From NCBI GenBank assembly GCA_034432095.1, contig DAOUCV010000021.1:4262-68261 (forward strand): a stretch of DNA of 64,000 bases, in the 5' to 3' direction. This document shows, one piece after another, positions 18,906 through 47,497 of this stretch. The stretch's first letter is position 1. The number at the start of each line of letters is the position of its first letter. Position numbers and translations under genes: made by a program. The notes beneath the pieces were generated by a model that worked only from the letters and a program-made list of their open reading frames with translations, did no database searches and was not told where the DNA came from. The stretch comes from Dehalococcoidales bacterium. GTDB lineage: Bacteria; Chloroflexota; Dehalococcoidia; Dehalococcoidales; UBA2162.

Positions 18906-19224
18906 CGCTACTTACTCACCCCCTTAACAACTTTAGTGGCAATTTTGTTTTGACAGGCTCAACTTTCTAGCACCAGACCCGAGGCTTTTGAACCCCTGTG
19001 TTGAATCTTCATCTCCAGCTACACGGTAGAATTAACCATATAGCTCGGCAGTTAGACACATGAGAAATAACCTTTCAACTGACCCTTGTCACCTGTGAAG
19101 CTTCTCCTAAGGTCAATCCAAGTCATCCTGTTAACTGTCTTCCTTCTTCTGGTTCTTCCCGCCTTATGCTATCACTACTCTCTAAAACAGCGCCGAATTT
19201 GGAAATAACCGTAGTGACGTGACA

Positions 19225-20448
19225 CTAGTTTATTGCCCCTAGTTTTCGCAGTTCTGAGATGTCCTTTTCACTGTAACCCAAGCTTTTGAGAATTTCTTCC
19301 GTATGTTGACCGGGGAGAGGAGCTACCCCTCTAATCCGTCCTGGCGTCTCTGACAACTTTATGGTAATTCCGGGATGTTTTATCTTCCCCAGAGTTGGGT
19401 GGTCGACTTCCACGATCATCTTCCGGTGAAGCAGGTGAGGGTCAGAGAGTACTTCGTCAAACCTGTAGACCGGGCCAACGCACGTATCCGCCTCCCGCAG
19501 GATATGCAACCATTCATCCCTTGTCTTCGTGCGAAAAACCTCCTGAAAGGCGGAAAGTATTTGGTGCCGTTTTTCAAGCATCTCCTGTGTGTCGGGGGCG
19601 TACACTCCTATCGCTCTATGGTACGGCAGGAATTCTTCTAAACCCAGCGCTTTACAAAGCCGCTCCCAGAACCAGGGCTCTCCGGGGGCAATATTGATAT
19701 ATTTGCCGTCCTTAGTTTCGAAAACGAGTGCCGGTCTTTCACCTAACTGTGGCTGCCTCCCGCTCATAAAGAATTGAGGTCCGTGACGTATCATCATGAA
19801 CAAAACGAGAGCGTCGACCATGGATGTGTCGACAAATTGCCCCTTCCCGGTCTTTTCTCTGGCAATAAGTGCCAGAAGGATTCCGATGGCGGCCTGCATA
19901 CCTCCTCCGGCGAAGTCACCTATCGGAATACCTGGTATAACGTGGCGACCGTCAGGAGTGCCAGTAATGCCTAAAATACCGGCCATTGATATGTAGTTAG
20001 TATCGTGTCCGGGGAAGAACCGATAGGGACCATCATGCCCATAGCCGGTAACGGAACAACAAATAATTCTTGGATTAATCACCTTAAGAGTATCATAGTC
20101 TACGCCAAGGCGCTTTGTTACCCCCGGCCTGAACTCGTCGATAACAATGTCCGCTGTTTTGGCAAGCTTGTAAAAAATATCCCTACCCTGTTGCGTCTTC
20201 AGGTTTAGACATATACTCCTCTTCCCGCGCTCATCAAATTGGTAAGCAGCGGCTATTTCCCTTCTTCTTTCTTCCTCTTTGGTGATTCTGTTACTATCTG
20301 CCGCAGTCGCTCTTAGCCCAAGACGAGACTGAGGTTGTTCAATTTTGATTGCATCAGCTCCCATGTCAACCAGAAACATCACAGCCAGCGACCCGGTCGG
20401 GAATGTGGTTAAATCTAGCACCTTTATGTGGTCTAGAACTAGCATCAA
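19225..20448 (-). CDS. family III CoA-transferase (CaiB/BaiF), copy 2
   Basis: IKVLDLTT...DMGADAIKIE, Asp block PIGDFAGG, and PGQHTEEIL. Confidence 0.9.
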   Translation of the reverse strand: MMLVLDHIKVLDLTTFPTGSLAVMFLVDMGADAIKIEQPQSRLGLRATAADSNRITKEEERRREIAAAYQFDERGKRSICLNLKTQQGRDIFYKLAKTADIVIDEFRPGVTKRLGVDYDTLKVINPRIICCSVTGYGHDGPYRFFPGHDTNYISMAGILGITGTPDGRHVIPGIPIGDFAGGGMQAAIGILLALIAREKTGKGQFVDTSMVDALVLFMMIRHGPQFFMSGRQPQLGERPALVFETKDGKYINIAPGEPWFWERLCKALGLEEFLPYHRAIGVYAPDTQEMLEKRHQILSAFQEVFRTKTRDEWLHILREADTCVGPVYRFDEVLSDPHLLHRKMIVEVDHPTLGKIKHPGITIKLSETPGRIRGVAPLPGQHTEEILKSLGYSEKDISELRKLGAIN

Positions 20449-24839: not shown

Positions 24840-25922
24840 ATGAAGTACGTGGATTTTGAAAGTCCTGAACAGTACCAAGATATCAAATATGAACCAGGGA
24901 GGGTCACTCGAATAATACTGAATAGGCCACGATATCTGAATGCCATCAGCCACCCCATGTATGCCGAGATCGACGATGCCTTCGAACGCTTCGCCGCTGA
25001 CCCAGAGTGCAAAGTAGCTGTCATTTCCGGAGCGGGCCCATGTTTCTCCGCTGGGCACGATGTTATGGGGCTTACACCAGAGTCAGCACCCATGTTGGCA
25101 GACAGGAGAACTCCTGAGCAATTAATGAAGCAATTCGGGTCCGAAAAGAAGGTCTGGCTACAGTATGACGAGGAACACCGTTACTTCTTGTTCGATTTGC
25201 ACCTCTATAAATTGCACCGCATTCCAAAGCCGACTATCGCCATGGTGCACGGGTATTGCATATATGGGGGATTTGCCCTAGCCGGAATAATGGACGTAAT
25301 CTTTGCTTCCGAGGATGCCTTGTTCCTGGGCGTGACCGGTCAGACTGACCCAGGAACATGGGACATGGGTGTGCGTAAAGTGATGGAGGTCATGTTAGAG
25401 CACCGCTTTATGACTGCCCGTGAATGCTACGAATATCACTTTATCAACCGCATCTTCCCTGACTACGAAACTCTGGAGAGGGAGACCCTCGCCTTTGCAG
25501 ACCGCGTCGCTGACAATGTTGGAGAGGGGAATCCAAAGATAGCTTTATATCATACGAGAGACATCCAGGGCTACACCAGGGCATTGGAGGAAAACTGGGC
25601 ACGCAGTGACTGGAAGAAAGGGGGGCGCATTCCATATTCCGGGTCGGCACAACACGGTATGAGATATGAAGGAAGAGGCGTTGCTCGGGCCCCTCGGGCT
25701 TTGGCCAACCTAAAGGCAAAGCTCGAGTCAGAAGGAAAGGAAGTGCCCAAGCTGGTCCTTGAGGCGTTAGCTAGAGCCAGTTCTAGGGATGATAAGGCAG
25801 TCTGGCAGAGGGCACTCCATCAGGAGTGGAGAGAGAAAGAGCGGATAGCCAGAGCGGAAAAAGAGGCTAAGGAATGGGAGGAAAAGGAGAGAGGAAAAAG
25901 TAGTCGCAAAGCCTCAAAATGA
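24840..25922 (+). CDS. enoyl-CoA hydratase/isomerase (crotonase) family protein with a Lys/Glu-rich C-terminal tail
   Basis: ILNRPRYLNAIS...VAVISGAGPCFSAGHD. RBS AAAAGGAGAG. About 90 aa of charged low-complexity tail (EKERIARAEKEAKEWEEKERGK). Confidence 0.8.
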   Translation: MKYVDFESPEQYQDIKYEPGRVTRIILNRPRYLNAISHPMYAEIDDAFERFAADPECKVAVISGAGPCFSAGHDVMGLTPESAPMLADRRTPEQLMKQFGSEKKVWLQYDEEHRYFLFDLHLYKLHRIPKPTIAMVHGYCIYGGFALAGIMDVIFASEDALFLGVTGQTDPGTWDMGVRKVMEVMLEHRFMTARECYEYHFINRIFPDYETLERETLAFADRVADNVGEGNPKIALYHTRDIQGYTRALEENWARSDWKKGGRIPYSGSAQHGMRYEGRGVARAPRALANLKAKLESEGKEVPKLVLEALARASSRDDKAVWQRALHQEWREKERIARAEKEAKEWEEKERGKSSRKASK

Positions 25923-26113
25923 GCTCCTGAACTCAGAAAACAGAGCCGCGCAAAGAAGAGGGTTAATGAACTGCCTGGGGACTACCATTAGGGTGCTCTA
26001 GCAATACCTCAAGGGCGGCTCTGTTAAATAAGAGAGAAACTAGGTGAAAGGCTAATTTGTTGTATAGGGGTTACATCTTAAACTATCTGATGTAGGGAAA
26101 GGAGGGAGTGGGG

Positions 26114-27394
26114 ATGAGTCAAAAGAAAGAGGTTGGCAACTCAAGAAGCTCGTCCGCGAATGCTAGCAATGGTGCCCTTTCTGGGCTGAAAGTTAGAGAG
26201 ATAGGTAACAATGTGGCTGTAGCCTATTGTTGCAAGCTTTTGGCTGACATGGGTGCAGAGGTGATAAAGGTGGAGGACCCTGCGACCGCCAACCTTGATA
26301 GACAGGAAGGGTCTATCTGGTGTGATGACAGGGAGGGTGGGGATGTGGGATGCTTATTCGCCTATGTGAACAGTAACAAGCTTGGGGTCACTTTGAACCT
26401 GGAGACTGAGTTAGGGAAAAGCATACTGTATGACTTGGTGCGGGATGCTGATATTCTGGTGGAAGGTAACTCCCCACGAAAAGCTAAGGAGATGGGATTG
26501 GGCTACGAACGTCTCAGCCAGATTAATAATATGCTGGTGGTGACCTCAATAACACCCTTTGGCCAAACTGGCCCATATCGGGAGTACAAAGCCTATGCTA
26601 TTAATTGTAGCGCTGCAGGCGGTGCTAGCAAGTCAATAGGGGAGCTCGGCCGCGAGCCGTTGTCTGTACCGCTGTATCAGCCCCATTTTCAGAGCGGCCT
26701 TATGGCAGCAGCCGCGACGCTTGGGGCTATCCTTGCTCGCGACTCTATTGGTCGTGGGCAACATATTGATATCGGTGAGACTGAGGTTTGGCTTACACAT
26801 CTGGCTGGGTATGGACTGCATGGTTTTGTTTTCTACGAGCAAAAAGTGATAAGAAAAGGCCGTACAATGGCGGGCCTCTTCCCCAACGGGATTCTTGAGT
26901 GTAAAGACGGAGAAGTTTCCTTTAGCACCAACACAGGGCGCCAGTGGAAACACTTTTTGGAGATCGTGGGTGATGGTGAGATACCGAGCTGGTATTCTTC
27001 AAATCCTGTATATACTAACACAAACTTTCAGGAGCTCCATAGAAAGTATGGGGACGAGCTGAGAGCCCGTTTGGAGCCACTATTGAAGCGTAAAACGAGG
27101 GATGAACTCATGGCGCTTGGCCAGGAGAAGCATGTCGCTCTTGCCCCCCTCCGAACCATCGCCGAAGTATTGGAAGACCCTCATCTTAACGCGAGGGGGT
27201 ATTTTGTGGAGGTGGACGACCCCCGGTTGGGTAGAGTTAAATTCCCCGGGCCGCCTTTCAGACTTGCCAAAACTCCTTGCCGTATTGAGCGTCCAGCGCC
27301 CGTGCCAGGCCAACATAACGAGGAGGTCTACTGTGGCCGTTTGAGCTACTCAAAGAAATATTTAACCGAGCTCAGGCGACAGGGGGTAATATAA
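26114..27394 (+). CDS. family III CoA-transferase homologue, copy 3 (His at the catalytic Asp position)
   Basis: LLADMGAEVIKVE, TSITPFGQTGPY and PGQHNEEV. The block aligned to GTDFMSG of copy 6 reads QPHFQSG. ATG 26114 follows AAGGAGGGA. Confidence 0.85.
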   Translation: MSQKKEVGNSRSSSANASNGALSGLKVREIGNNVAVAYCCKLLADMGAEVIKVEDPATANLDRQEGSIWCDDREGGDVGCLFAYVNSNKLGVTLNLETELGKSILYDLVRDADILVEGNSPRKAKEMGLGYERLSQINNMLVVTSITPFGQTGPYREYKAYAINCSAAGGASKSIGELGREPLSVPLYQPHFQSGLMAAAATLGAILARDSIGRGQHIDIGETEVWLTHLAGYGLHGFVFYEQKVIRKGRTMAGLFPNGILECKDGEVSFSTNTGRQWKHFLEIVGDGEIPSWYSSNPVYTNTNFQELHRKYGDELRARLEPLLKRKTRDELMALGQEKHVALAPLRTIAEVLEDPHLNARGYFVEVDDPRLGRVKFPGPPFRLAKTPCRIERPAPVPGQHNEEVYCGRLSYSKKYLTELRRQGVI

Positions 27395-27583
27395 ATATGG
27401 GGAGTTGTCGAGCGGAGGCCGTTTAAAAATGAAGGGGTATCTGGCGGCTTTTCAGGGTGTCTCTGGAGCTGGAAGATGTCAAAACTCACCAAAAAGGTGG
27501 AGGTGAAGCGTTTTCAAATTGGCCGAAAATGAAGCTAAAATCAAAACTAAACGGCCTCGAGCGGATAAGGAGGTGATAATCAT

Positions 27584-28798
27584 ATGGAAAAGATGATGTA
27601 TCCGCTCAGTGGTTTTCGGGTGGTGGATTTTGGATGGGTAGCTGCAGGCGCTGCCGCCGGCAAGATTTTGGCCGATATGGGTGCCGAAGTGATTAAGGTG
27701 GAGACAAGGACGCGCTTAGATACTACCAGATTCTCGCCAGACAATGTTGAACGGTCTCCGGAGACCGACCCAGGGTTTCACGCCATGAATCGCAATAAGT
27801 TAGGCATTACTGTAGACATGACCAAACCTGAGGGTGTTGAGCTATTGAAAAAACTGGTAAAAGTCAGTGACGTAGTACTTGAGAATTTCGCTCCCGGAGT
27901 AATGAAAAGGTTTGGCTTGGATTATGAGTCTCTACGCCGTGAAAAGCCTGACCTCATTATGGTCTCGATGCCAGGCCTTGGCAGCTGGGGTCCCCAATGG
28001 AACACGATTGCCTATGCGCCGGGTTTAGCTGCCCTCTCTGGACTAACGGGGATGATTGGGTACTATGGCGGAAGAGCCGTGGGCATACACGTAGCATATT
28101 CAGATTTCAATGCTGCTACCAACGCCGCTCTGGCAGTCCTTGCTGCTCTAATCCACCGTAGGCGTACCGGAGAAGGACAATATATTGAGGTGGCACAGCT
28201 TGAGGCCTTAGTCAGCTGCCTCGGCGAGGCGCTGTTGTATTATCAAGTGACAGGCAGGAACCCCGGGACTCAGGGCAATCGACATCCTACGATGGCACCG
28301 CATAACAATTATCGGTGTAAGGGCGAGGACAAGTGGGTATCAATTGCGGTGAAGACAGAGGAAGAATGGAAAAAGCTAGTCCAGGCAATGGGTGACCCAC
28401 CTTCACTGCGAGCGGAGATATTTAACAGCAGGGAGGGCAGGCTTAGTCACCTAGAAGAGTTGGACAGCATCATTACCTCCTGGACGGTTAACTATACGCC
28501 AGATGAGGTCACTGATATCCTCCAAAGTGTTGGTGTAGCCGCCTGTCCCGTTATGGATATCGGGGAGTGTTACCTTAACCCTCATTTCCAGGAAAGGGAA
28601 GATTTTACTTGTGTGGAGCACCCTGCCACAGGGACTGATTTTATCGTTAATCTGCCTTGGAGAATGAGCGAGACGTCAGGCGGAATCTATCGCCCCGCGC
28701 CCATGCTGGGTCAGCATAACCAGTACGTTCTGGGAGATATCCTGGGCTTATCAAAAGACGAGGTCGCAGCTCTCGAGGAGAAGGGGGCACTAAAATAA
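27584..28798 (+). CDS. family III CoA-transferase, copy 4
   Basis: FRVVDFGWVAAGAAAGKILADMGAEVIKVE, Asp block AYSDFNAA, and LGQHNQYVL. Confidence 0.9.
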   Translation: MEKMMYPLSGFRVVDFGWVAAGAAAGKILADMGAEVIKVETRTRLDTTRFSPDNVERSPETDPGFHAMNRNKLGITVDMTKPEGVELLKKLVKVSDVVLENFAPGVMKRFGLDYESLRREKPDLIMVSMPGLGSWGPQWNTIAYAPGLAALSGLTGMIGYYGGRAVGIHVAYSDFNAATNAALAVLAALIHRRRTGEGQYIEVAQLEALVSCLGEALLYYQVTGRNPGTQGNRHPTMAPHNNYRCKGEDKWVSIAVKTEEEWKKLVQAMGDPPSLRAEIFNSREGRLSHLEELDSIITSWTVNYTPDEVTDILQSVGVAACPVMDIGECYLNPHFQEREDFTCVEHPATGTDFIVNLPWRMSETSGGIYRPAPMLGQHNQYVLGDILGLSKDEVAALEEKGALK

Positions 28799-28851
28799 AA
28801 GGCCAAAGTTTCGCCAAGCCTGATCAATAAAAGATAAAGAGGAGGGAAAAG

Positions 28852-30057
28852 GTGCAACAGCTACCTCTTGAAGGCGTAAGGGTTGTTGATTTTACTACAG
28901 CCCAAGCCGGCGCTCATTGCACCCAGTGGCTCGGGGTGATGGGGGCAGAAGTTATTAAGATTGAGAGTAGGGTGCGCCCCGATGTTACCCGGCTCTCGTC
29001 TCGAGCTGAGACGCTGGACCAGAGCGCGTCGTTTGTTTCATTCAACAGCGGTAAGAAGAGTATTACCCTTAATATGAATCAGCCCAAGGCGGTGCAGATT
29101 GTCAAGGAGCTGGTCAAGCTCAGCGACGTAGTAACTGAGAACTTTGGCGGAGCAACGATGGAGCGCTGGGGGTTGGGATATCCGGAATTGAAGAGGCTTA
29201 AACCCGATATCATTGTCTTCGCAACCTCAGGTTACGGCAGAACCGGTCCCCGCAAGGAGTCCCCCGCCTTTGCCCCTGTTGTTGATGCCTTCTCCGGGTT
29301 ACTCTCGGTGAACGGTTATGTTGGCGGCATTCCCAATGTTGTAGGAAACAGGGGGTGGACAGATGCGATGGCGGCTGTGCACGGAGCGTTTGTTATTCTG
29401 GCTGCTCTGTATCACCGCTCAAACACAGGTGAGGGACAATACATAGACGCATCCATGACCGAACTGAATGCTAACGTACTCGGTGAACTGGTTATTGATT
29501 ACGCTATGAATGAGAGAGTGGCTCAACCTGTAGGGAATCGGGATAATATTATGGCTCCTCACGGTTGCTACCGTTGCCTTGGAGAAGACAAATGGGTAGC
29601 TGTTGCGGTCTCAAGTGAGCAGGAGTGGCAAGCCTTCTGTAATGCCCTGGGCAATCCCGAGTGGACAAAGAAAGAAGAGTTCAGTGATGGGCTGAGTCGG
29701 CTGAATAATCAGGAGGAACTGAACAGGCTGATAGAAGAATGGACAAAGCAGCATAGTCATTACGAAGTAATGGAGATATTGCAGAAGGTAGGCGTTATGG
29801 CAGGAGCGTGCCTTACTTTGGAGGAGTTAAAGAGTGACCGTCAATTGAGGGAGAGGGAGTTCCTGCTCGACATTGAGCAACCACTTATCGGGAAGCTATG
29901 CTTGTCCCGCATGCCTTGGAGGCTGAGCGGTACTCCTGGAGGAAATTACTACCGCGCCCCATTACTCGGCGAGCACAATAATTATGTTTTTGGTGAGTTA
30001 CTAGGCATGCCCGAGCAGGAGATAAGACGGCTGGAGGAAGAGAAAGTCATTTACTAA
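28852..30057 (+). CDS. family III CoA-transferase, copy 5
   Basis: VRVVDFTTAQAGAHCTQWLGVMGAEVIKIE, Asp block GWTDAMAA, and LGEHNNYVF. GTG start after GAGGAGGG. Confidence 0.9.
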   Translation: MQQLPLEGVRVVDFTTAQAGAHCTQWLGVMGAEVIKIESRVRPDVTRLSSRAETLDQSASFVSFNSGKKSITLNMNQPKAVQIVKELVKLSDVVTENFGGATMERWGLGYPELKRLKPDIIVFATSGYGRTGPRKESPAFAPVVDAFSGLLSVNGYVGGIPNVVGNRGWTDAMAAVHGAFVILAALYHRSNTGEGQYIDASMTELNANVLGELVIDYAMNERVAQPVGNRDNIMAPHGCYRCLGEDKWVAVAVSSEQEWQAFCNALGNPEWTKKEEFSDGLSRLNNQEELNRLIEEWTKQHSHYEVMEILQKVGVMAGACLTLEELKSDRQLREREFLLDIEQPLIGKLCLSRMPWRLSGTPGGNYYRAPLLGEHNNYVFGELLGMPEQEIRRLEEEKVIY

Positions 30058-30062
30058 TCAGC

Positions 30063-31307
30063 TTGGGAATAACGACTGGAAAAAGAGCGACTGGCATGAA
30101 CAGGCAAGCACTCACCGGTTTAAAGGTTCTCGAATACAGCCAGTCCGTGGCTGGTGATTACTGCGGAAAGCTTCTGGCTGATTTAGGTGCTGAGGTAATT
30201 AAGGTGGAAGAGCCTGGCTCTGGCGATAAGGTCAGAAGCTGGGGCCCCTTCCCGAAGGACATACCTCACCCGGAGAAAAGCGGCATGTTTCTGTTGCTTA
30301 ACACCAATAAGCTGGGGGTGACTCTCAATCTTAGGACGGCGACAGGGCTGAAGATTTTCAGGGAACTGGTACAGCGGGTTGACATTTTGGTGGAGAGCAA
30401 TCTGCCCCGTGAGATGAAACAGCTCGGTCTCGACTATGAAAGCCTCCACAAGCTCAATCCTGCGCTGGTGATGACCTCAATTACCGCCTTCGGTCAGACA
30501 GGACCCTACCGGGACTATAAAGGCTGTGACCTTATCAACTACAGTATGGGTGGAGGTGCTTATTACAACCCCGCGGAGGGGGTGGATAACGTTGAGGAGT
30601 TCCCCCCGTTAAAGGTGCCAGCCCACGGCACCGATTTTATGAGCGGGGCTAGCGCCGCGGTAAGTACAATGTCGGCGGTTATTGCCCGGAAGACATCTGG
30701 TCTGGGACAGCATGTGGACGTTTCGCAGCAAGAAGCTCTGACTTCCGTAGCGCGTAACCAAATTATTTCCTATTCCCAGACAGGTATGCTTACCTTCAGT
30801 AGGGCGAAACGAGGCGGGTCCAATCTGTTTCCCTGCAAGGACGGCTATGTGTGCCTGTATCTGATGGAGGATCTATTTTGGCCAAGCCTAAAGAAGATGC
30901 TGGGCAATCCAGATTGGACTAAGGAGGAGTGGTGCCAAGACCCCGCCAGACGCGCCCAGAATGCCAAAAAGTTCCATGAAGTATTGGTAGAGTGGACGAG
31001 TCAGCACACAATGGATGAGGTGTACCAGGCAGCGATTGCTAATCGCATTCCCTGCTCCCCGGTTCGCAGCGTAAAAGACCTGTTCACTGATGAGCAGTTG
31101 ACGGCACGGGATTTCTTTGTGGAGATTGACCACCCAGCAGCGGGCAGGCTTAAATATCCTGGAGCACCCTACAAACTTTCGGCAACCCCCTGGACAGTAA
31201 AGCGTCCTGCCCCTCTCCTCGGCGAGCACAATGAGAAAGTGTACTGCCAGATGCTAGGCTACACTCGGCAGGATTTGGTGAAGATGAGGGAGACCGGGGT
31301 AATCTAG
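30063..31307 (+). CDS. family III CoA-transferase, copy 6
   Basis: LLADLGAEVIKVE, TSITAFGQTGPY, Asp block GTDFMSG, and LGEHNEKVY. The start is uncertain (TTG 30063 or ATG 30096). Confidence 0.9.
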   Translation: MGITTGKRATGMNRQALTGLKVLEYSQSVAGDYCGKLLADLGAEVIKVEEPGSGDKVRSWGPFPKDIPHPEKSGMFLLLNTNKLGVTLNLRTATGLKIFRELVQRVDILVESNLPREMKQLGLDYESLHKLNPALVMTSITAFGQTGPYRDYKGCDLINYSMGGGAYYNPAEGVDNVEEFPPLKVPAHGTDFMSGASAAVSTMSAVIARKTSGLGQHVDVSQQEALTSVARNQIISYSQTGMLTFSRAKRGGSNLFPCKDGYVCLYLMEDLFWPSLKKMLGNPDWTKEEWCQDPARRAQNAKKFHEVLVEWTSQHTMDEVYQAAIANRIPCSPVRSVKDLFTDEQLTARDFFVEIDHPAAGRLKYPGAPYKLSATPWTVKRPAPLLGEHNEKVYCQMLGYTRQDLVKMRETGVI

Positions 31308-31548: not shown

Positions 31549-32517
31549 TTAAGCCTGGATACTGCACATAAATCCGTACGATTCTACCAGCCGTTTCATA
31601 TCCTGTAAGACACTGTCCGGAACGAGGGGAATGTGAGCTATAGGGTAGGGGCGGTTTAAGCTATCGTATCTTGTCTTCCCCAGATGGTGCAAAGGTATAA
31701 GGTGCACCTCAACTACTGAAGATAAACCCTGAGCAAACTCACAGATAGCTCTGATATTCTCTTCTGAGTCGTTGTAACCCGGGATTACCGGTACCCTTAT
31801 ATAGAGGGGGATATTTCTCTGGGAAACCGCCCGAGCGTTACTCAGAATTAGCTTGTTTGAGACGCCTGTCAATTCCTTATGTCTTTCTGGGTCCATATGC
31901 TTTATGTCCCAGAGAAAGAAATCGATGTAGGGCAACATCTGCTCAATGCTTGCCCAGGGGACATGACCGCAGGTATCAATTCCGACATTGATACCTTCTT
32001 CTTTCAAGCCCTGAAGCAATTTCAGCGTGAAGTCCGGGTTCAATAAGGGCTCTCCCCCCGAAAGGATGACTCCACCACCGGAGTGTCTATAAAAAGCTAT
32101 ATCCTTTTTCGCCTCCTCAAGCAACTCTTCAACAGTCATAGGTCGTCCCAGAAGCTTTATGGCTTCTGAGCTGCAGACTTCAGCACACTTGCCACAGTTG
32201 TTGCATAGAGACCGGTCAATACTTATTGTCCCATCTGCTAAGCTAATAGCATTCAGGGGGCATGCCGGGACACACTGGTCACAATGGATACATTTGCTCG
32301 GGTAGATAGCAATCTCAGGTTCAGCCTTTTGAGACTCTGGCGTCGAGCACCACAAACAGCGCAATGGGCACCCTTTGAAGTAGATGACGGTTCGTAGTCC
32401 AGGGCCATTATGAATAGTCATCCTGCTTATGGTCAGAACAAGCCGCTTTTGAGTAGCACTTTTTGACCTCATGATGGCCTGGTTCCAAATGCTGTTACCC
32501 GGTAAATGACGGGACAT
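31549..32517 (-). CDS. glycyl-radical enzyme activating enzyme (radical SAM, with two auxiliary ferredoxin-type clusters)
   Basis: GPGLRTVIYFKGCPLRCLWCSTPE (CX3CX2C), CIHCDQCVPACP, CNNCGKCAEVC and GGGVILSGGEP. ATG 32517 lies 1 nt after the GRE stop; the ORF is open to 32592, and ATG 32472 is an alternative. Confidence 0.85.
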   Translation of the reverse strand: MSRHLPGNSIWNQAIMRSKSATQKRLVLTISRMTIHNGPGLRTVIYFKGCPLRCLWCSTPESQKAEPEIAIYPSKCIHCDQCVPACPLNAISLADGTISIDRSLCNNCGKCAEVCSSEAIKLLGRPMTVEELLEEAKKDIAFYRHSGGGVILSGGEPLLNPDFTLKLLQGLKEEGINVGIDTCGHVPWASIEQMLPYIDFFLWDIKHMDPERHKELTGVSNKLILSNARAVSQRNIPLYIRVPVIPGYNDSEENIRAICEFAQGLSSVVEVHLIPLHHLGKTRYDSLNRPYPIAHIPLVPDSVLQDMKRLVESYGFMCSIQA

Positions 32518-32518
32518 T

Positions 32519-35047
32519 CTACCAGCCTTGGTGCTCTGTACGACTAATAATGTCCAGCTGTGCCGCTTCATCGAGGTCGACAAAGTAGGCAACGGTGCTA
32601 GCTACTCGAACCATCAGGTCCCTGTAGTTCTCTGGCTCCTTCATCGCCTTGCGCAATAGATCGCTTGAAATTACATTGAACTGGAAGTGATATACGCCCA
32701 GTTCCTCGACAGTTCTGAGAAAGGCTACGAAGTTGTCTATATCGCGATCAGTGGCAAGTAGCTGGGGACTTAGCCTCATATTCATTGGGCCGCCCAGGGC
32801 AAGCCGGTGCGTTGGCAGTTTGCTTACCGACTTCATAACGGCCGTGGGGCCATTCCTGTCCACGCCCTGGGACGGGGACATGGTATCAGCCAGAGGCTTT
32901 GGGTGGATATGGCCGTTGGGTAAAGCGCCAACTGTTCGCCCTGCGATAACGTTACCTCCCGCAACCACAGTTTTACCAAGCCACTTGCCGCCCCACCACG
33001 GAAGCAGGTTTGCCTGCGTGTTAACCCAATCTACGGCGTCCTGCCAAGTGTCCATCACCCAGGCTGCCCAGCTATCGGCAAAGTCATCGTCATTACCATA
33101 CTTGGGCACACTATTGATGCAGAGTTGCCTTAGGTCCTCATAGCCCTCCCAGTTAGCCTTGATTGCCTCAAGCAACTGGTCCCAGGTGACCTTTTTGTCA
33201 CGGTAGATTAACTTGTCAATCACTCCCAGAGAGTCGGCAGTGTCAGCTAGGCCGGAGAGTAATATGCCATACGTTGTGTACCATGCGCCGCCCTGAGTAA
33301 TGTCGCGACCCCTCTGCAAAGGCCCTTCCGCAAGTGCAGAGCTAAATGGGGCGGGAAACCACATAGACTGAGCCTCTTTCAAATACTTCACGCCTTCAAC
33401 ATAATACTTTACCCAGTAGAACACCTGTTCCCGGAAAGCCCGCCGCACCGCTTCTATTGATTCAAAAGTCCTGGGATCGCCAGTCGCGGGTCCTATTTGT
33501 CTGCCGCATATGGCGCACTTCCCGTTGTTCAGTACTAGCTCCACGAACTTTGGTACAATATTATCTCCCTCCCAGTTATGAGCCATAGTAATGTGAGGCA
33601 GGTCGGTTGCTGAACACCCTATCAGAACATACTCTCGCCAATCCTCAATGGTCAAATCAGGGTAGCCCTTGGATAACATCTGGATCGCTTTGCGGTCACC
33701 ACAGAACTTGGGCTTGCCCCGACCAAGACGGATTACTTCAGCGGCTTTTCTTAAATACTTGTCGGGTGTGCCCTCCCATATCCTCATCGCTGTTTCTGGC
33801 TGGATTATGCTCAGTTGCTCCTCAGCTTCCAGACAGAGCATGGTAACTTCGTTACAGGCATCTTTGCCATCACGAGTTTGCCCCCCGATGGTTAGGGACT
33901 GGGTTGCCTCTCTGGCACAGTCAAGCTTGGTATAAAAACACATCAGGAGTTCCAGAGCCTCTTCATGAGTCATTGTCTTATCGTCGATAACCGATTTTTT
34001 GTAGAAGGGGTACATATACTGGTCAAAGCGTCCAAAGGAGTTTACCTCTCCAGCGAGTTCACAATTAACGATGACGTGTATCATCCAGTTGGACTGCACT
34101 GCTTCCCACCAGTCTCGGGCGGGGTTTGCCGGTACCCAGTCACAAACCTCGGCGATACGCTCGAGCTCACGCCTGCGTACGGGATTGACCTCTTTTGCCG
34201 CCATCTCTCGTGCTAGGTCGGCATACCGCTTGGAATATGCCATAGCCGCGTCTAGTGTGATAAGGACTGCTTTGTAGAAGTCTCTTCTCTCTTGCACTTC
34301 GAAGTGCGTATATGGCTCGTCAAGTTGAGCCAAGTACCACTCTACCTCTTCCTTTATGCCTTTGAGACCTTTGTGAAGAACCTTTTCATTGTTGGGCATC
34401 TGATGGCCAGCGTCTCTCCACATTGATACACCGGCGTGATTAGGAATATGCGAGCAAGAAGAAGTCGTTGCAAAAGATTTTTCCAGTAGTTCGGGATTGA
34501 GATTTTTCAGATTGTAGTCGAGCAGGGTCTTTCCTTTGAAGTAGGGGAAAAGCACTTCCCGGATCTCTTTCTTCTCTTCGGGATGAATTACGCAGTTGAA
34601 CCGGGTCTCAAAATTCTTGATTGCCTCATCAGCGTCAAGTTCCACCGTCGGGTCAAGTATGGGAGGTGCACACTCCGCCCGATGCTGGCCTGTGAATGAC
34701 TCCTGGATATCCCAAATGCTGGCCCCCGTCGGATGGCTAGTCAAACCGGAAATGGTAATACCCCGAACCTTGCTATTCACATTGCCTACAATGAGTTCCT
34801 CGTCCAGTATGTAGATGGTCTTATCTCTTAGATATGTCTCCAGGAAACGTGCGCGCTGAATGATTCTGGGCTCATCCTTATATTGCTCTAGGGTCTTCAT
34901 CTCAGCGCGAGCACGCTCCAAGCAGATCTCTGGCGTTTGGAGAGCACGTTGCTTTGCTTTCTTGATGCGCTCAGAATAGGTCGGCACGAAGAACTCCTGC
35001 CAGCTACCTACATCTTGAACCTTTGTGTTGCCTAATACAATCGCCAT
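32519..35047 (-). CDS. PFL2-type glycyl radical enzyme homologue lacking the conserved radical glycine
   Basis: 842 aa. GRE blocks are present: LTIGGQTRDGKDACNE, thiyl-loop candidate LIGC(478)SAT, VGALPNGH...PLADTMSPSQGVDRNGPTAV, and a C-terminal glycyl-radical domain ending DIISRTEHQGW. That domain reads RVAS(817)TVAYF instead of RV[AS]GY[ST]A. Confidence 0.85.
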   Translation of the reverse strand: MAIVLGNTKVQDVGSWQEFFVPTYSERIKKAKQRALQTPEICLERARAEMKTLEQYKDEPRIIQRARFLETYLRDKTIYILDEELIVGNVNSKVRGITISGLTSHPTGASIWDIQESFTGQHRAECAPPILDPTVELDADEAIKNFETRFNCVIHPEEKKEIREVLFPYFKGKTLLDYNLKNLNPELLEKSFATTSSCSHIPNHAGVSMWRDAGHQMPNNEKVLHKGLKGIKEEVEWYLAQLDEPYTHFEVQERRDFYKAVLITLDAAMAYSKRYADLAREMAAKEVNPVRRRELERIAEVCDWVPANPARDWWEAVQSNWMIHVIVNCELAGEVNSFGRFDQYMYPFYKKSVIDDKTMTHEEALELLMCFYTKLDCAREATQSLTIGGQTRDGKDACNEVTMLCLEAEEQLSIIQPETAMRIWEGTPDKYLRKAAEVIRLGRGKPKFCGDRKAIQMLSKGYPDLTIEDWREYVLIGCSATDLPHITMAHNWEGDNIVPKFVELVLNNGKCAICGRQIGPATGDPRTFESIEAVRRAFREQVFYWVKYYVEGVKYLKEAQSMWFPAPFSSALAEGPLQRGRDITQGGAWYTTYGILLSGLADTADSLGVIDKLIYRDKKVTWDQLLEAIKANWEGYEDLRQLCINSVPKYGNDDDFADSWAAWVMDTWQDAVDWVNTQANLLPWWGGKWLGKTVVAGGNVIAGRTVGALPNGHIHPKPLADTMSPSQGVDRNGPTAVMKSVSKLPTHRLALGGPMNMRLSPQLLATDRDIDNFVAFLRTVEELGVYHFQFNVISSDLLRKAMKEPENYRDLMVRVASTVAYFVDLDEAAQLDIISRTEHQGW

Positions 35048-35443: not shown

Positions 35444-37297
35444 CTAGTATCCCATAGACTTCTTCAGGTCCTGGTCAATCCAGCTGTACAGGTAGTAGTC
35501 AGCTCCGTTCCACAAACCTATTGACGTTTCACCGCTGTAACCCTTTAACCACGGCTGCCAGGCCCTGTACACATATGGTGTTGCGATCGGTATTATATAG
35601 CTCTGGTCAACAATGTATGGATAGACCTCCTTGATCAATCTGGCCTCTTCGGCCTTGTCGAACCAAGCGGCGGTGACATCCTCAAATGCCTTATCAATAC
35701 GTGGGTCATAAATATTGCCAGCGTTCACGGGCATTCCCGTCCTCCAAACGTAGAACTCGTATGGTGCCTCAGTCATCGTGTTCTGGAAGGCACATCCTGG
35801 ATATGTCCTCTTCGCGCCCACCAGCATAGACATATAGATACCATAGTCCAGCACTTGAATTTCCGCGTCAACGCCGATTTTAGCCCAGTCGGCTACAATT
35901 ATGGACAAGAAGTCCGCCTGGCCCAAGGTGCAAATTATACTGGTCTTAAAGCCATTGGGATAACCGGCTTCAGCCAGGAGCTGCTTTGCCTTATCCGGGT
36001 GATACTCAAATAGCTCCCTGGCTGACTGGGGATACTCCTCAAACGGGATGAACCACTGCTTAAGTTCTGGCAGTATTGGATAGGCGAATGTCTCAGCACG
36101 ACCCTTATAGTATTGGTCTTTTATTACCTGCCTATCTATAGCCATAGATAAGGCCCGCCGGACCTTGATGTCACTAAAAGGCGTCTGGTCCACCCTCATG
36201 TATATCGTCGAGGTCGCTTCAGCCAGATACTCTCGCCATTTCAGTTGTGGGGCAGTCCTCTTTAAAGACTCTGCAGTGTCAAATGCAAACTCCTCTTTGC
36301 CCAAACCGTCAACCGCGCCGGTGCGCAGGGCGGCTTGTCGGGTAGACGCATCTGGTATGACCAGTATCTTAGCGCCATCCGGATAGGGCATGGTGTCCTC
36401 TGGAAAAAGAGGATGCTTCCGCCAGTAGTTAGGATTCCTGACAAAGGTTGCCACAGAACCTCGGACGTAATCCGTCAGTATATATGGCCCAGTACCAACG
36501 TTATTTCTCCAATCACGCATGTCTCCGTATTTATCAATCACTTCATGCGGAATTACAAAGATACAATCACCAACTCTAAGCCATACTCTTGAGAACCATC
36601 CCGGCTTAGTCTTCACGACAACCGTCCACTTGTCAGGTGCTGTTACCGATTCTACAGACTGGTCATAGGGACAAAACATAGCTTGCGGACTCATGGGGTT
36701 TTTCCACATGCGCAGGAGGGAAAACACCACATCCTCAGCGTTCACCTCCCTACCACCCACCAGTCGGCTCGCCTCGCTGGCCGGGTTAAGTGCAAAGTGA
36801 ACCCCTTTGCGCATGTGGAGGACAATGGTGGTTTGATCCGGCCACTCCCAGCTTTCAGCCAAAAGGGGAGCCGGATAGAATCGGGGCTCCGAAGAACGGA
36901 GAAAAGGGAATTCACCAGTGCCTGATGGCCCCCTTGTATAGTCACCGGTGAGTGGTTCCTCACAAGTGAGAGAATTGGCAGTACACTGTACATTCAGGCG
37001 GTAAGCATCATCAAAGTGCTCTGGGTCTGATGCCAACGCCCACTTCAATATTCCGCCATATTTAGGCTTTTCCACCAATTTCTCAACTACTGTCCCATCC
37101 CCTTTCTTCAGCCTCAACTTCACCATCTCCGGTCCCGCTTCCTCTTCGACTGCTTCTTCCACTGGTTTTTCTTCCGCTACTACTACTTCTGCTTTCCCGA
37201 CCTCTACTTTTTTCGCCGCTTCTTTCGGGGCACAGGATGCTATCACCAGAGATAGCACCATCAGACTGCTCACCACCACCCACACGACCTTTTTCAT
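35444..37297 (-). CDS. ABC transporter substrate-binding lipoprotein, family 5, paralogue 2
   Basis: MKKVVWVVVSSLMVLSLVIASCAPKE lipobox, an acidic linker, and C-terminus DLKKSMGY. RBS GAGGAGG. Confidence 0.85.
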   Translation of the reverse strand: MKKVVWVVVSSLMVLSLVIASCAPKEAAKKVEVGKAEVVVAEEKPVEEAVEEEAGPEMVKLRLKKGDGTVVEKLVEKPKYGGILKWALASDPEHFDDAYRLNVQCTANSLTCEEPLTGDYTRGPSGTGEFPFLRSSEPRFYPAPLLAESWEWPDQTTIVLHMRKGVHFALNPASEASRLVGGREVNAEDVVFSLLRMWKNPMSPQAMFCPYDQSVESVTAPDKWTVVVKTKPGWFSRVWLRVGDCIFVIPHEVIDKYGDMRDWRNNVGTGPYILTDYVRGSVATFVRNPNYWRKHPLFPEDTMPYPDGAKILVIPDASTRQAALRTGAVDGLGKEEFAFDTAESLKRTAPQLKWREYLAEATSTIYMRVDQTPFSDIKVRRALSMAIDRQVIKDQYYKGRAETFAYPILPELKQWFIPFEEYPQSARELFEYHPDKAKQLLAEAGYPNGFKTSIICTLGQADFLSIIVADWAKIGVDAEIQVLDYGIYMSMLVGAKRTYPGCAFQNTMTEAPYEFYVWRTGMPVNAGNIYDPRIDKAFEDVTAAWFDKAEEARLIKEVYPYIVDQSYIIPIATPYVYRAWQPWLKGYSGETSIGLWNGADYYLYSWIDQDLKKSMGY

Positions 37298-43734: not shown

Positions 43735-44286
43735 ATGGAAGAGAAGATTATCGTATTTGACCCGGTTCTATGCACCGGGTGTATGCGTTGCATGACCACC
43801 TGTTCCACCTATAATGTTGGTGCGACAAGCCTATCCAAATCCCGCATTCATATTGTGAGACACGAGGGGCACGCTATTACTAGGATAGATGAAGAGGATG
43901 AGCTCATCTTTGAAGCTCTTACCTGTCGGCAGTGTGATAAGCCATATTGCCTGTATTTCTGTCCGGTGCAGGCTATTGAGAAAAACAGGGACACAGGAGC
44001 CATAACCATCAACTACGATAGATGCATCGGTTGCCGGATGTGTATGGTCGGCTGCCCTTTTGGTGCGGTTCTCTACGATGCCGGCAGAAAACGGGTTATG
44101 AAATGCGAGTTCTGCGGTGGAGACCCGCAGTGTGTGAAGTTTTGTCCCACCGGTGCCCTACAGTTCCTGCCCAAAGGTCTTGCCCAGATACCCAAAATAG
44201 ACCGCCTGGCTAGAAAAATAATTGAGCTTCGGCCGAGAGCCACCGAAGAAATCCCTGCTGGAGAGAGGAAAAATGTCAGTCCCTAA
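43735..44286 (+). CDS. poly-[4Fe-4S] ferredoxin-type electron-transfer subunit (AorA / DmsB-like)
   Basis: Four Cys groups: CTGCMRCMTTC, CRQCDKPYCLYFCP, CIGCRMCMVGCP and CEFCGGDPQCVKFCP. Confidence 0.85.
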   Translation: MEEKIIVFDPVLCTGCMRCMTTCSTYNVGATSLSKSRIHIVRHEGHAITRIDEEDELIFEALTCRQCDKPYCLYFCPVQAIEKNRDTGAITINYDRCIGCRMCMVGCPFGAVLYDAGRKRVMKCEFCGGDPQCVKFCPTGALQFLPKGLAQIPKIDRLARKIIELRPRATEEIPAGERKNVSP

Positions 44287-46276
44287 GGGATATGCGGGAA
44301 ATGTAGCCCTAATAGATTTGGGAAAGCAGGAAGCGCAGGTATTGCCTACTGAGAAGTTCTGGAGGGACTACCGTATTGACCCCAGGCTCTGGCTGGGGGG
44401 TGACGGTTTTATCACCAAGGTTCTCTGGCAGGATTTCCCCATGGCGATAGACCCCCTCAGTCCGGAAAATGAAATCATCATTGCTACCGGTCCGTGGACG
44501 GCTACCGCCGCCCCTCAGGCAGGACGAGCCATGCTGGGCTGCGTCAGCCCCGAGACCGGCGGCTTTTCTTCAGGGGCGTTCGGGTGGTACTTCCCCGCAG
44601 CTGTTAAGTATGCCGGGTTTGATATGGTGATTATCCGGGGTAAGGCCAAAGAGCCGGTTTATATTTTCATTGATGACAGGGACATAACATTCCATGACGC
44701 TTCTCACATCTGGGGGAAGGAGACCGGCGAAACGGTCAAAATGATTAGGGAGGAGTTGGGCGAGCGCTACGAGAGCGAAATCCGTGTTTTAAGTATTTCC
44801 ACCGCCGGGGAGAACTTGGTCAAGTATGCGGCACCGTGTGCTGATGGTACTTCCTGCCCCGGGCGGTCGGGCGGTGGTGCCGTCATGGGGTCAAAGAACC
44901 TCAAGGCAATCGCCGCTCGGGGCACAGGCGAAATCTCAGTATATGACTCTCGTGGGCTGCTGGAGTCCTCTTATAACGCCGTCAAATTCTTCCTCGAAGA
45001 GGAACCAACCATAAAGCTATGGCAGGAGCAGGGGAGCTCCACAAGTATGTCAACGACCACTAACTGGCCGCTCCACGGAGGGATGCTGGCGGAAAACCGC
45101 AAAGCGGCTGACTATCCTCACCTGAAGAATGCGGGGTGCCTTAACTGTTTCGCACCCTGTTACCACTGGCTTCAAATCAAAGAGGGGAAATACGCCGGAC
45201 TGAGGCAGCTCGGCGGTCATATGACCTTCCTTACCACCGCTCTGCGCAATCTTGACATTAAAGAGTTTAATGACTGGATCTACTACGAGCGGTTGATGCA
45301 AGAGCTTGGTATAGACCCTGCCTCGTTTTCTATGGCTTTTTCTTTTGCTGTTGACCTATTTGACAAGGGGTTTCTCAAGACTGGCGATACTGATGGTCTG
45401 ACGCTGAGACGTGGTGACGCCGACTTAATATGGGAGGTAGCACGGAAAGTAGCCCACCGTGATGGAAAGCTGGGCAACCTATTAGCTGACGGCGTGGCTG
45501 AGATGGGCAGAAAATTTGGTTCTGAAGCAGAAGCAATTATGCCCCAGACAGTGAAGGGTAAACCCTCCATACAGCGGGATTCAAAGCTTCAGGCATTAAT
45601 CTGGTCTTTTGGCGCCCTGACCAACCCGCGGGGAGGCGATTGGCTCCGCCTCCACAATGTCTGGGAGCTGGCTTTCCTGCCCGAAAACAGAGATACCTAT
45701 CCCAAGTACATCGGTAAAAGCAACCTTGAAATGTACCAGAGATGTGTAGAATTGCTGGATATGCCCGATGACTTGAAGAAGGAAATATTCGGCGACCCTC
45801 CTAAAGTTGACGCCGATTGGGTGAGAGGCACCAGGGGGAAGGCCCGGTTCTCGGTATGGTCGGAGGACTTTGTCTCACTCTTCAACACGCTGGTAACCTG
45901 TATGTTTGGTGCTGCCACCCAGTTTATGATGGTAGGCTTTGGTCCCACAACTTATGCCGAGATCCTAAACAAGATTACCGGCTGGGATGTAACCTATGAA
46001 GAGCTGATGAAGGTGGGGGAGAGGGTTTTTAACCTGCAGCGGGTATTCAACTACAGATTAAAGGGGTGGGACTACCGGGATGACAGGTTTGCTGACCGGC
46101 TATCCTACGAGCCAGGAACAATTGGCATATATCGAGGGAAATTAGTGCCCTGGGATGCCGTCCTGAAGGAATACTATTCAATTCGAGGCTGGTCAAGCGA
46201 TGGGATTCCCACGAGGACCAAAATAAGTGAATTAAAATTAGACGACGTCGTTGAGGCAGTAAAACTACCAGACTAA
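44273..46276 (+). CDS. aor: aldehyde:ferredoxin oxidoreductase family tungstopterin enzyme
   Basis: GYAGNVALIDL..., LGGDGFITKVL, ATGPWTAT, PGRSGGGAVMGSKNLKAIAARG. ATG 44273 follows GGAGAGAGG; the ORF is open from 44222. Confidence 0.9.
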   Translation: MSVPKGYAGNVALIDLGKQEAQVLPTEKFWRDYRIDPRLWLGGDGFITKVLWQDFPMAIDPLSPENEIIIATGPWTATAAPQAGRAMLGCVSPETGGFSSGAFGWYFPAAVKYAGFDMVIIRGKAKEPVYIFIDDRDITFHDASHIWGKETGETVKMIREELGERYESEIRVLSISTAGENLVKYAAPCADGTSCPGRSGGGAVMGSKNLKAIAARGTGEISVYDSRGLLESSYNAVKFFLEEEPTIKLWQEQGSSTSMSTTTNWPLHGGMLAENRKAADYPHLKNAGCLNCFAPCYHWLQIKEGKYAGLRQLGGHMTFLTTALRNLDIKEFNDWIYYERLMQELGIDPASFSMAFSFAVDLFDKGFLKTGDTDGLTLRRGDADLIWEVARKVAHRDGKLGNLLADGVAEMGRKFGSEAEAIMPQTVKGKPSIQRDSKLQALIWSFGALTNPRGGDWLRLHNVWELAFLPENRDTYPKYIGKSNLEMYQRCVELLDMPDDLKKEIFGDPPKVDADWVRGTRGKARFSVWSEDFVSLFNTLVTCMFGAATQFMMVGFGPTTYAEILNKITGWDVTYEELMKVGERVFNLQRVFNYRLKGWDYRDDRFADRLSYEPGTIGIYRGKLVPWDAVLKEYYSIRGWSSDGIPTRTKISELKLDDVVEAVKLPD

Positions 46277-46323
46277 GCAAAATTCCGGACGACTAACTTG
46301 AATAACAAAGGAGGACGAGTGAG

Positions 46324-47448: not shown

Positions 47449-47497
47449 CGGGGAGGATTTCTAAAACCCGGAGAGAAATTTTAGAGGAGGTGTACAG

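Follow-up and report, generated by a model that had tools for sequence, protein, structure and literature searches.

The window, the whole 64-kb stretch of DNA analysed here, contains on its minus strand an 842-aa open reading frame (32519..35047) which probably encodes a serine radical enzyme (SRE), one of the aminoacyl radical enzymes (AAREs) within the superfamily of glycyl radical enzymes (GREs). This assignment is based on its PFL-like and Gly_radical domains, its place in a serine-bearing clade and dN/dS. Pfam detected the PFL-like domain (PF02901, E = 4.6e-159) and, at residues 720-822 (32582..32890, minus strand), the C-terminal radical domain (PF01228, E = 1.5e-23), and the protein ends in ...NYRDLMVRVASTVAYFVDLDEAAQLDIISRTEHQGW. 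A phmmer search of PDB chains gave a best E-value of 1e-125, and identity to the solved GRE eliminases was 31-41%. An AF2 model (pLDDT 85.6) gave a predicted structure with TM scores of 0.86-0.93 against 1,2-propanediol/glycerol dehydratase, HypD and CutC. The barrel, the C-terminal radical domain, the full-length homology to solved GREs and a conserved mid-protein cysteine, Cys478, place the protein in the PFL-like superfamily. An earlier note on this DNA had described the same architecture, which both Pfam matches and the gapless alignment to solved GREs bear out, and its coordinates and codons for the gene and the motif were all correct on re-checking. Every NCBIfam equivalog cut-off was missed, including that of TIGR01774 (534 bits against 678).

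The gene directly downstream on the same strand (31549..32517) encodes a radical-SAM enzyme, the probable SRE activase, which scored 344 bits against TIGR02494 (cut-off 174). Its CX3CX2C motif (CPLRCLWC, 32347-32370), two ferredoxin-type CX2CX2CX3C motifs (32260-32292 and 32173-32205), GGGVILSGGEP (32047-32079) and an NGPG motif (Asn37, 32398..32409), which reads DGPG in Gly-type activases, all lie on the minus strand. Apart from NGPG, these motifs and the downstream position had been reported before and hold, but the start at TAGaATG is uncertain. The protein has 322 aa when read from the ATG at 32517 and possibly 307 aa from the ATG at 32472; in assembly L001, which carries an 89%-identical orthologue of the SRE gene, the activase begins at the counterpart of Met16, corresponding to the latter ATG.

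A Dpp/Opp-type substrate-binding protein of the SBP_bac_5 family (35444..37297, minus strand; PF00496, E = 7e-61) is encoded directly upstream of the SRE gene, and its gene has the same position in L001 (76% identity). Convergent with the SRE operon are four tandem family III CoA-transferase genes (26108..31307, plus strand; PF02515, E = 1e-84 to 1e-107), possibly linked to it in function. The second of these has the benzylsuccinate CoA-transferase subunit 9fn0_B as its best PDB match (E = 4e-62), and in L001 all four still adjoin the SRE gene despite an inversion. Upstream of them lies a crotonase-family enoyl-CoA hydratase gene (ECH; 24840..25922, plus strand; PF00378, E = 4e-23), syntenic in L001 with 84% identity.

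The C-terminal radical domain contains the sequence RVASTVAYF (codons cga gta gct AGC acc gtt gcc tac ttt, 32582-32608, minus strand). In the comparison with PDB chains the segment dlmVRVASTVAYFVDL paired gaplessly with VRVAGYSAFFVEL of CutC and VRVAGYTAFFVEL of 8iof, and Ser817 (AGC, 32597..32599, minus strand) therefore occupies the column of the radical glycine. An alignment to characterised GREs, as the earlier note had proposed, puts a serine, and not a glycine, in this column. The protein is accordingly not a GRE in the strict sense, in which a glycine is found in the C-terminal RVxG[FWY]; here Ser817 is followed by Thr818. Ser817 was unchanged across 42 diverse clade members, and serine occupied the position in all of the approximately 116 sequences with an intact C-terminus among the best 120 homologues, which form over 100 separate clusters at 90% identity. 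At the level of genome loci, serine was present in 39 of 39 with at least 44% identity and glycine in every locus with 39% or less, and the serine codon was AGC or AGT in 40 of 40 cases. The replacement of the catalytic glycine is in other words conserved among the relatives and no singleton, which answers the question of conservation raised before. All three residues noted as deviating are present, but Ser817 is the one that defines the clade. Thr818 is limited to the nearest relatives, most clade members keeping Tyr or Phe there, and Val819 is within the usual C/V/T variation of the clade. That the present protein has Thr818 where most SREs keep the aromatic residue of RVx[G/S][FWY] counts against an SRE.

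AAREs were defined by Fu et al. (JACS 2024; PMC11528403), who found that dedicated activases give GRE homologues with Ser, Ala or Thr a stable Cα radical. With its own activase, DaSRE of Dethiosulfatibacter aminovorans gave an EPR signal that was ascribed to a Cα radical on Ser801, and among its S801 variants only S801G still formed a radical (PMC11528403). The published SREs use AGY codons for this serine (PMC11528403). In a neighbour-joining tree, distance-based and not maximum likelihood, the serine clade including the protein studied here had a bootstrap support of 100/100, and the Thr enzymes were its sister group, as also in Fu et al. (PMC11528403). The clade is monophyletic and includes published members: the MAGs Zod_Metabat.1351 (L005) and Clostridiales AS06rmzACSIP_159 (L024) carry clade members, and both are in SRE Table S2 of Fu et al. 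(PMC11528403). The DaSRE sequence was available as OCR-damaged, codon-optimised DNA from the supporting information, compared by frameshift-tolerant HSP chaining, and its identities of 70% to clade member L036_1 and approximately 41-47% to the 842-aa protein are lower bounds limited by OCR quality. Dethiosulfatibacter was not among the best 80 loci of the genome-contig search. An activase was found near the SRE gene in about 30 of 39 SRE loci, mostly directly downstream and in a few cases upstream.

Taken together, we consider with a probability of roughly 85% that the two genes encode an SRE of the AARE class and its dedicated, adjacent radical-SAM activase with CX3CX2C. The idea that the activase acts on a non-glycine site, raised in the earlier note, is therefore supported and, with DaSRE in the same clade, already published (PMC11528403); the statement that nothing of the kind was described for this family was wrong, since AAREs including DaSRE appeared in 2024 (PMC11528403). 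That GRE homologues can lack the radical glycine truly changed the paradigm when it was published, and with the Ser-for-Gly principle known since 2024 the present locus adds no new principle. By homology, the activase would cleave SAM reductively, and the 5'-deoxyadenosyl radical would take the Cα hydrogen of Ser817 to leave a stable backbone radical. This radical would reversibly oxidise Cys478 in the adjoining finger loop, and the thiyl radical so formed would in turn take a hydrogen atom from the substrate. Ser817 is a putative Cα radical site by gapless alignment, clade invariance and analogy with a characterised homologue less than about 50% identical.

Other explanations of the motif were weighed against the SRE reading. 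That 32582-32608 contains an error of sequencing or assembly has a negligible chance, with nothing but the rarity of the motif speaking for it: RVASTVAYF is present in three independent assemblies (L001, P0001 and P0111), with the serine codon AGT in L001 and AGC in the window, and serine is found throughout the clade. The loss of the canonical radical glycine could instead have ended radical chemistry and left a protein that is inert, repurposed or encoded by a decaying gene, and the missing post-radical aromatic residue and Cys+2 Glu, as well as the score under the TIGR01774 cut-off, agree with this. Both genes, however, are under strong purifying selection, with a dN/dS against L001 of 0.048 at dS ~1.3 for the SRE gene (dN 0.057 for residues 720-842) and 0.106 for the activase gene. 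The serine is invariant and always AGY-encoded over a large clade, Cys478 is invariant, the activase is co-conserved and DaSRE, a homologue, carries a radical on its Ser. A non-radical pseudo-enzyme is very improbable on this evidence, and a pseudogene is ruled out by dN/dS and conservation; the same observations contradict the earlier suggestions that the gene was inactivated recently or encodes a pseudo-GRE. The odd motif is real and probably functional, neither an error nor the mark of a pseudogene.

A radical delivered in trans by a small GrcA/YfiD-like protein encoded elsewhere, with the activase working on that protein, is scarcely credible. The C-terminal domain has a weak NCBIfam similarity to GrcA models, but such similarity is expected of any GRE C-terminus. 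GrcA/YfiD is a stand-alone protein of ~127 aa with a homologous, Gly-bearing radical domain, whereas the domain studied here is intact, carries Ser and is fused to a full-length enzyme of 842 aa, which thus possesses a complete radical domain of its own. When the 64 kb were searched by a motif scan in six frames and by tblastn, only noise came up, with neither a further RVxG-type motif nor a second GRE or GrcA-like ORF, which agrees with the earlier note on the first point and leaves its in-trans radical domain without support. Moreover, genetic coupling of activase and SRE is seen throughout the clade, and the DaSRE radical depends on Ser801 itself. The activase might also attack the serine side chain, with Cβ-H abstraction giving a formylglycine-type product or a Cβ radical as in anaerobic sulfatase maturases. 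The PFL activase removes the pro-S hydrogen of glycine, and such an attack is plausible because the side chain of an L-residue sits at the place of this hydrogen. This stereochemical argument, from established chemistry of the PFL activase, and the two auxiliary clusters of the present activase speak for such an attack, and Fu et al. remark that the accepted pro-S abstraction cannot be the stereospecificity in this case (PMC11528403). Their EPR simulation for DaSRE, however, describes a Cα radical with two inequivalent β-protons and not a Cβ radical, and two auxiliary clusters are found in most ordinary GRE activases as well (PMC11528403). Side-chain attack is for these reasons quite improbable.

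The Asn of the activase NGPG motif was present in 97% of 29 SRE-linked activases, and the Asp of DGPG in 30 of 30 Gly-linked ones. The SI DNA of Fu et al. encodes NGPG in DaSRE-AE, DGPG in DgARE-AE and DGYG in FpTRE-AE (PMC11528403). This serine- and glycine-type signature may be a new result, and the Asp-to-Asn switch in the substrate-binding motif may underlie the recognition of serine.

In the SRE itself, the thiyl loop differs. LIGCSAT pairs with LMGCVEP in the PDB comparison, so Cys478 (33614..33616, minus strand), aligned with CutC's catalytic Cys in GCVEP, is the putative thiyl-radical cysteine, and Ala480 (33608..33610, minus strand) replaces the Glu of GCxE. The Cys+2 Glu is the general base of GRE 1,2-eliminases, whose GCxE reads GCSAT here. 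Neither Gly477 nor Cys478 varies within the clade, and Cys+2 is the sole alignment column separating a 10-member subclade, to which the protein belongs, from both the other SREs and the Gly enzymes. The residue is Ala in 9 of the 10 members and Ser in the tenth (P0004); Glu is found in 47 of 47 other SREs and in 89% of the Gly enzymes. The earlier reading of this loop, Cys478 without the eliminase Glu, was thus correct, and the loss of Glu, confined to this subclade, may be a new result. Since Glu is replaced by Ala, the chemistry of the subclade may differ from that of the Glu-bearing SRE majority. Some of its members also have Thr, Asn or Ser instead of the post-radical aromatic residue, and two have no adjacent activase.

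Family III CoA-transferase genes were found near 15 of 40 SRE loci, with the window counted as one, and near 0 of 40 Gly loci; a taxon-matched test of the association gave p = 0.036. The recurrence of pairs of these genes near SREs may be a new result. SBP_bac_5 genes were near 8 SRE loci and no Gly locus, and on the P0007 contig an ECH gene adjoins the SRE-activase pair and CoA-transferase pairs. The window holds in total 6 family III CoA-transferases and 3 SBP_bac_5 genes, so its background is rich in both families. With this background, the p-value of only 0.036 and the differing neighbourhoods among subclade members, the link to a CoA pathway is weak. As neighbours specific to SREs, neighbourhood clustering gave a FAS1_DH hot-dog protein, DUF6282, a DHDPS-like protein, UGSC, MarR and a carboxylesterase; the window lacks most of them, so they say little about the gene studied here. 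According to Fu et al., AARE gene contexts are too varied for reaction prediction (PMC11528403), a review of June 2026 lists no elucidated function for any AARE, and a literature search on GRE/CoA-transferase pathways of Dehalococcoidia gave nothing useful.

The substrate, perhaps an organic (di)carboxylic acid, might enter the cell through the Dpp/Opp-type ABC system encoded next to the SRE gene. It, or the product, might become a CoA thioester via the BbsEF-like family III CoA-transferases and then meet enoyl-CoA hydratase and acyl-CoA dehydrogenase. That the GCS[A/S]T subclade has left 1,2-elimination for another radical reaction on a (di)carboxylic acid, forming or cleaving a C-C bond or decarboxylating, with the product entering a Bbs-like CoA-transferase/hydratase/dehydrogenase pathway, is doubtful but deserves mention: if true, the SBP, the SRE, its activase, the ECH and the paired BbsEF-like CoA-transferases would offer a concrete route to the first AARE reaction. 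The CoA-pathway association, the Glu-less subclade with its probably different chemistry and the Asp-to-Asn switch of the activase are leads on AARE function.

Among known systems, the best sequence and fold matches are the GRE 1,2-eliminases (CutC, glycerol and 1,2-propanediol dehydratases, HypD and IslA), which at 29-32% identity share the ten-stranded barrel, the Cys and radical finger loops and the activase type, and differ in having Gly as radical residue and the catalytic Glu at Cys+2 where the present protein has Ser and Ala. The X-succinate synthases (BssA and MasD) likewise have no Glu at Cys+2, and fumarate addition was considered because of this and of the BbsEF-like CoA-transferases. 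Besides the benzylsuccinate CoA-transferase match, subclade member P0005 adjoins a BbsA-H-like set of genes for a thiolase with DUF35, ACAD, a hot-dog hydratase, a CoA-transferase and an SDR. Identity to the X-succinate synthases is, however, 24-27% and TM 0.80-0.83, their structures rank below all eliminases, and small accessory subunit genes as in these synthases were not recognised in an inspection not specific to them. X-succinate synthase function was not adopted, since the eliminases are clearly the closer match in both sequence and fold.

The closest characterised system is DaSRE with DaSRE-AE. Both enzymes have an AGY-encoded Ser in the radical-Gly column and a conserved thiyl Cys followed by the LPHITM signature, and they share one monophyletic clade, whose sister group is the Thr enzymes; both activases are encoded by the adjacent gene and have CX3CX2C, two auxiliary clusters and NGPG. 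They differ, beyond the sequence divergence given above, in the loop, GCSAT with the Cys+2 Glu lost against GCTES in DaSRE, and in the residue that follows the Ser, here Thr and not an aromatic one, where the motif of DaSRE itself is only unreliably legible by OCR. The gene neighbourhoods differ as well, and DaSRE comes from a Firmicute, the present gene from a Dehalococcoidia-like environmental genome. Fu et al. listed 21 SREs with stress on the human gut (PMC11528403); SREs are also abundant and diverse in environmental Chloroflexota/Dehalococcoidia.

The 842-aa protein encoded at 32519..35047 (minus strand) and the activase encoded directly 3′ of it, a radical-SAM gene at 31549..32517 (minus strand), belong to the serine-type (SRE) branch of the aminoacyl radical enzymes (AAREs). 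The protein, which ends in ...MVRVASTVAYFVDLDEAAQLDIISRTEHQGW, contains a full PFL-like domain (Pfam, E 4.6e-159) and a Gly_radical domain (E 1.5e-23), and has the PFL-type architecture with a C-terminal glycyl-radical domain that an earlier note had described. When all PDB chains were searched with phmmer, its C-terminus aligned without a gap to those of CutC, VRVAGYSAFFVEL, and 8iof, VRVAGYTAFFVEL, which places Ser817 (codon 32597-32599, minus strand) in the radical-Gly column of characterised glycyl radical enzymes (GREs). In the same search LIGCSAT of the query protein paired with LMGCVEP, and hence the thiyl Cys is Cys478 (codon 33614-33616, minus strand), and Ala480 stands where the eliminases have Glu. 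The codons and both positions reported in the earlier note were all correct, its placing of Ser in the Gly column and its choice of Cys478 as a thiyl-loop Cys lacking the eliminase Glu were borne out, and its statement that the protein has no other RVxG motif was confirmed, as neither such a motif nor a further GRE or GrcA-like ORF was present within the 64-kb window. The name of PDB entry 8iof is misleading for annotation transfer.

An AlphaFold2 model of the protein, built on 42 relatives (pLDDT 85.6, pTM 0.89), matched the solved GRE eliminases with TM 0.86-0.93 and, more poorly, the X-succinate synthases with TM 0.80-0.83. Since the protein resembles the eliminases more in both sequence and fold, we do not favour a role in fumarate addition. 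The length of 842 aa compares with ~825-831 aa in the remaining clade, and a disordered insertion of ~15 residues within residues 105-136 (window 34640-34735, pLDDT <50) is otherwise found only in the database homologue P0001.

The non-Gly radical site is a conserved feature of a clade and no lesion, and purifying selection acts on both the protein and its activase. Among the best 120 database homologues, 57-90% identical to the query, Ser occupied the radical column of every one with an intact C-terminus, most frequently in the motifs RVASYCAYF, RVASFTVYF and RVASYCTYF. A sequence library clustered at 50% identity contained two or three representatives of the clade, scoring 908-958 bits; below these the scores fell abruptly to 512 bits (40% identity), and there the column contained Gly or, occasionally, Thr or Ala. 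Among the matches listed from species-representative genomes (79 loci), Ser was present in 39/39 loci at an identity of at least 44% and Gly in 40/40 at 39% or less. The clade was recovered in 100/100 bootstraps of a neighbour-joining tree of 146 sequences with Thr-bearing enzymes as its sister group, and Ser817, Gly477 and Cys478 were invariant in 42 diverse members. The SREs also differ from the Gly-bearing relatives in co-varying signature residues, with P576 in place of C, K357 of G, D611 of K, M802 of Q, W313 of F and T591 of N.

Four explanations had been offered in the earlier note for the Ser-Thr-Val found in place of the radical Gly-Tyr-Ser. One of these, a recently inactivated gene, is contradicted by the clade-wide Ser and the bootstrap support of the clade, as well as by codon use, selection and recurrence of the triplet, which together exclude a pseudogene. 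The Ser codons were AGC (n = 26) or AGT (n = 14) in 40/40 cases and never TCN, and dN/dS against the 89%-identical orthologue at locus L001, a Dehalococcoidia MAG, was 0.048 (enzyme) and 0.106 (activase). The exact S-T-V triplet occurred in three independent assemblies (L001 and the homologues P0001 and P0111), and the Ser codon of L001 differs from that of the query. A sequencing error is excluded by the same evidence, and the Ser is no singleton, being conserved in a clade under purifying selection. The supported explanation is an activase that works on a residue other than Gly, for which the SRE prototype DaSRE of Dethiosulfatibacter aminovorans is the precedent (Fu et al., JACS 2024, PMC11528403).

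Three paralogues with Ala (codon GCC) at the radical site (RVAAY[CS]AYF) were found at loci L019 (944-7222), L020 (7755-13825) and L012 (1587-10578); their tblastn identity to the query was 56-57%. They formed a 100/100-bootstrap group nested within the Ser clade, whereas the Ala enzymes of Fu et al., who found the activases to be residue-specific, form a separate clade (PMC11528403); judging from its position in the tree, the nested group seems to have arisen independently of them. The gene order at L019 and L020 is Ser enzyme, Ala enzyme and a single activase, which raises the question whether this one activase acts on Ser and Ala alike. At locus L080 a Gly-type GRE homologue (7460-9880, RVAGYSAYF) immediately 5′ of the Ser enzyme P0004 is in four pieces through apparent frameshifts, with no activase nearby.

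The gene 3′ of the query encodes a complete GRE-type activase (TIGR02494, 344 bits against a cut-off of 174) with the motifs CX3CX2C, two CX2CX2CX3C and GGGVILSGGEP, in agreement with its earlier description as intact-looking. Its start is ambiguous: the ATG at 32517, one base past the stop codon of the SRE, would give 322 aa, the orthologue at L001 starts at the residue aligned with Met16 (alternative ATG at 32472), and homology begins only at about residue 23-28. By homology to DaSRE and the GREs, the activase would cleave SAM, the 5′-deoxyadenosyl radical would take the Cα hydrogen of Ser817, and the stored Ser817 radical would be passed to Cys478, whose thiyl radical would start substrate chemistry. 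Abstraction of Cα-H from an L-residue implies a stereospecificity unlike the accepted pro-S abstraction on Gly (Fu et al., PMC11528403). A motif near the N-terminus of the activases reads DGPG in the published Ala-type, DGYG in the Thr-type and NGPG in DaSRE-AE (PMC11528403 SI). In the loci compared here, NGPG was found in 28/29 SRE-linked activases, including that of the window (32398-32409, minus strand; Asn37 codon 32407-32409), whereas the Asp was kept in 30/30 Gly-linked ones. Other signature positions of the Ser-linked activases, numbered by the 347-aa ORF, are G204, D206, F225/F226, W228, Y264 and R308. Since the DGPG motif presumably contacts the substrate loop in the PFL-AE-peptide structure, we infer that the Asp-to-Asn switch is a plausible determinant of Ser specificity.

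A single alignment column, position 480, cleanly splits the query's subclade of 10 members from the 47 other SREs. It holds Ala in 9/10 subclade members (in the query codon 33608-33610, minus strand) and Ser in P0004, whereas Glu is present in 47/47 other SREs and 89% of the Gly relatives, and GCxE has accordingly become GCS[A/S][T/S]. This Cys+2 Glu is the general base of the GRE 1,2-eliminases, and with its loss the chemistry of the subclade may, judging from sequence, have changed. The aromatic residue that follows the radical site is replaced by Thr in the query and its closest relatives.

In the window, genes for a substrate-binding protein, the SRE and the activase lie on the minus strand, convergent with an enoyl-CoA hydratase gene and four family III CoA-transferase genes that follow one another on the plus strand, and the second CoA-transferase has the benzylsuccinate CoA-transferase subunit 9fn0_B as its best match (E 4e-62). 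ABC permeases, an acyl-CoA dehydrogenase, ETF/ETF-QO, aldehyde:ferredoxin oxidoreductase and HgdAB-like genes are nearby, and at L001 the same genes adjoin despite an inversion. Family III CoA-transferases, mostly paired, were found no further than 8-10 kb from the enzyme in 15 of 40 SRE loci, a count that includes the window, against 0/40 Gly loci (Fisher p=1e-5), and within Chloroflexota in 12/29 against 0/8 (p=0.036). P0007 is flanked by PrpD-family genes, ECH, two CoA-transferase pairs and AOR, P0005 lies beside a Bbs-like set (thiolase and DUF35, two ACADs, hot-dog hydratase, CoA-transferase, SDR) with no adjacent activase, and the neighbourhoods of P0004 and P0002 differ again. The argument from association is weakened by the presence in 64 kb of six family III CoA-transferase genes (17748-20448, 26108-31307) and three SBP_bac_5 binding-protein genes (5927-7756, 35444-37297, 51821-53659), and a CoA-activated carboxylic acid as substrate or product of the SRE is therefore a lead, not a conclusion. 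At 43735-48844 two HGD-D (2-hydroxyacyl-CoA dehydratase / benzoyl-CoA reductase-like) subunits come after a ferredoxin and an aldehyde:ferredoxin oxidoreductase, and a LarA-like lactate racemase homologue is encoded at 58936-60210; together they suggest an anaerobic metabolism of (hydroxy)acids in this region. A DUF6282 gene immediately after the activase was seen in 13 SRE loci (e.g. L013, 13456-14325) against 0/40 Gly loci and is absent from the window; further neighbours specific to SRE loci were FAS1_DH hot-dog (15 loci), DHDPS-like (12), UGSC (11), MarR (7) and carboxylesterase (7) genes.

The earlier note held that nothing of this kind had been described for the family, which is wrong, as Fu et al. 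described the AAREs, GRE homologues in which Ala, Ser or Thr occupies the Gly site (PMC11528403), and a June 2026 review counts AAREs as a seventh GRE class, with function elucidated for none. The paradigm-breaking part, a non-Gly radical site, is thus already published; the locus gives usable leads on AARE function and activase specificity, and in environmental Chloroflexota the SREs far outnumber the 21 first listed by Fu et al. (PMC11528403). Two MAGs of their SRE table, Zod_Metabat.1351 and Clostridiales AS06rmzACSIP_159, are the sources of loci L005 (63% identical to the query) and L024 (54%), both with Ser. When paired with its own activase, DaSRE forms a radical, the four-line EPR signal of which fits a Ser Cα radical, and of the S801 variants only S801G kept radical formation (PMC11528403). 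The DaSRE coding sequence as printed in the SI, which is OCR-damaged, was 70% identical to the clade member L036_1 and ~41-47% to the query, and its 25/25 best matches were clade members. The Cys loop of DaSRE, GCTESFLPHITM, carries the LPHITM signature common to the query's clade, and both the AGY-only Ser codons of the clade and the position of the Thr enzymes beside the SREs in the tree agree with Fu et al. (PMC11528403).
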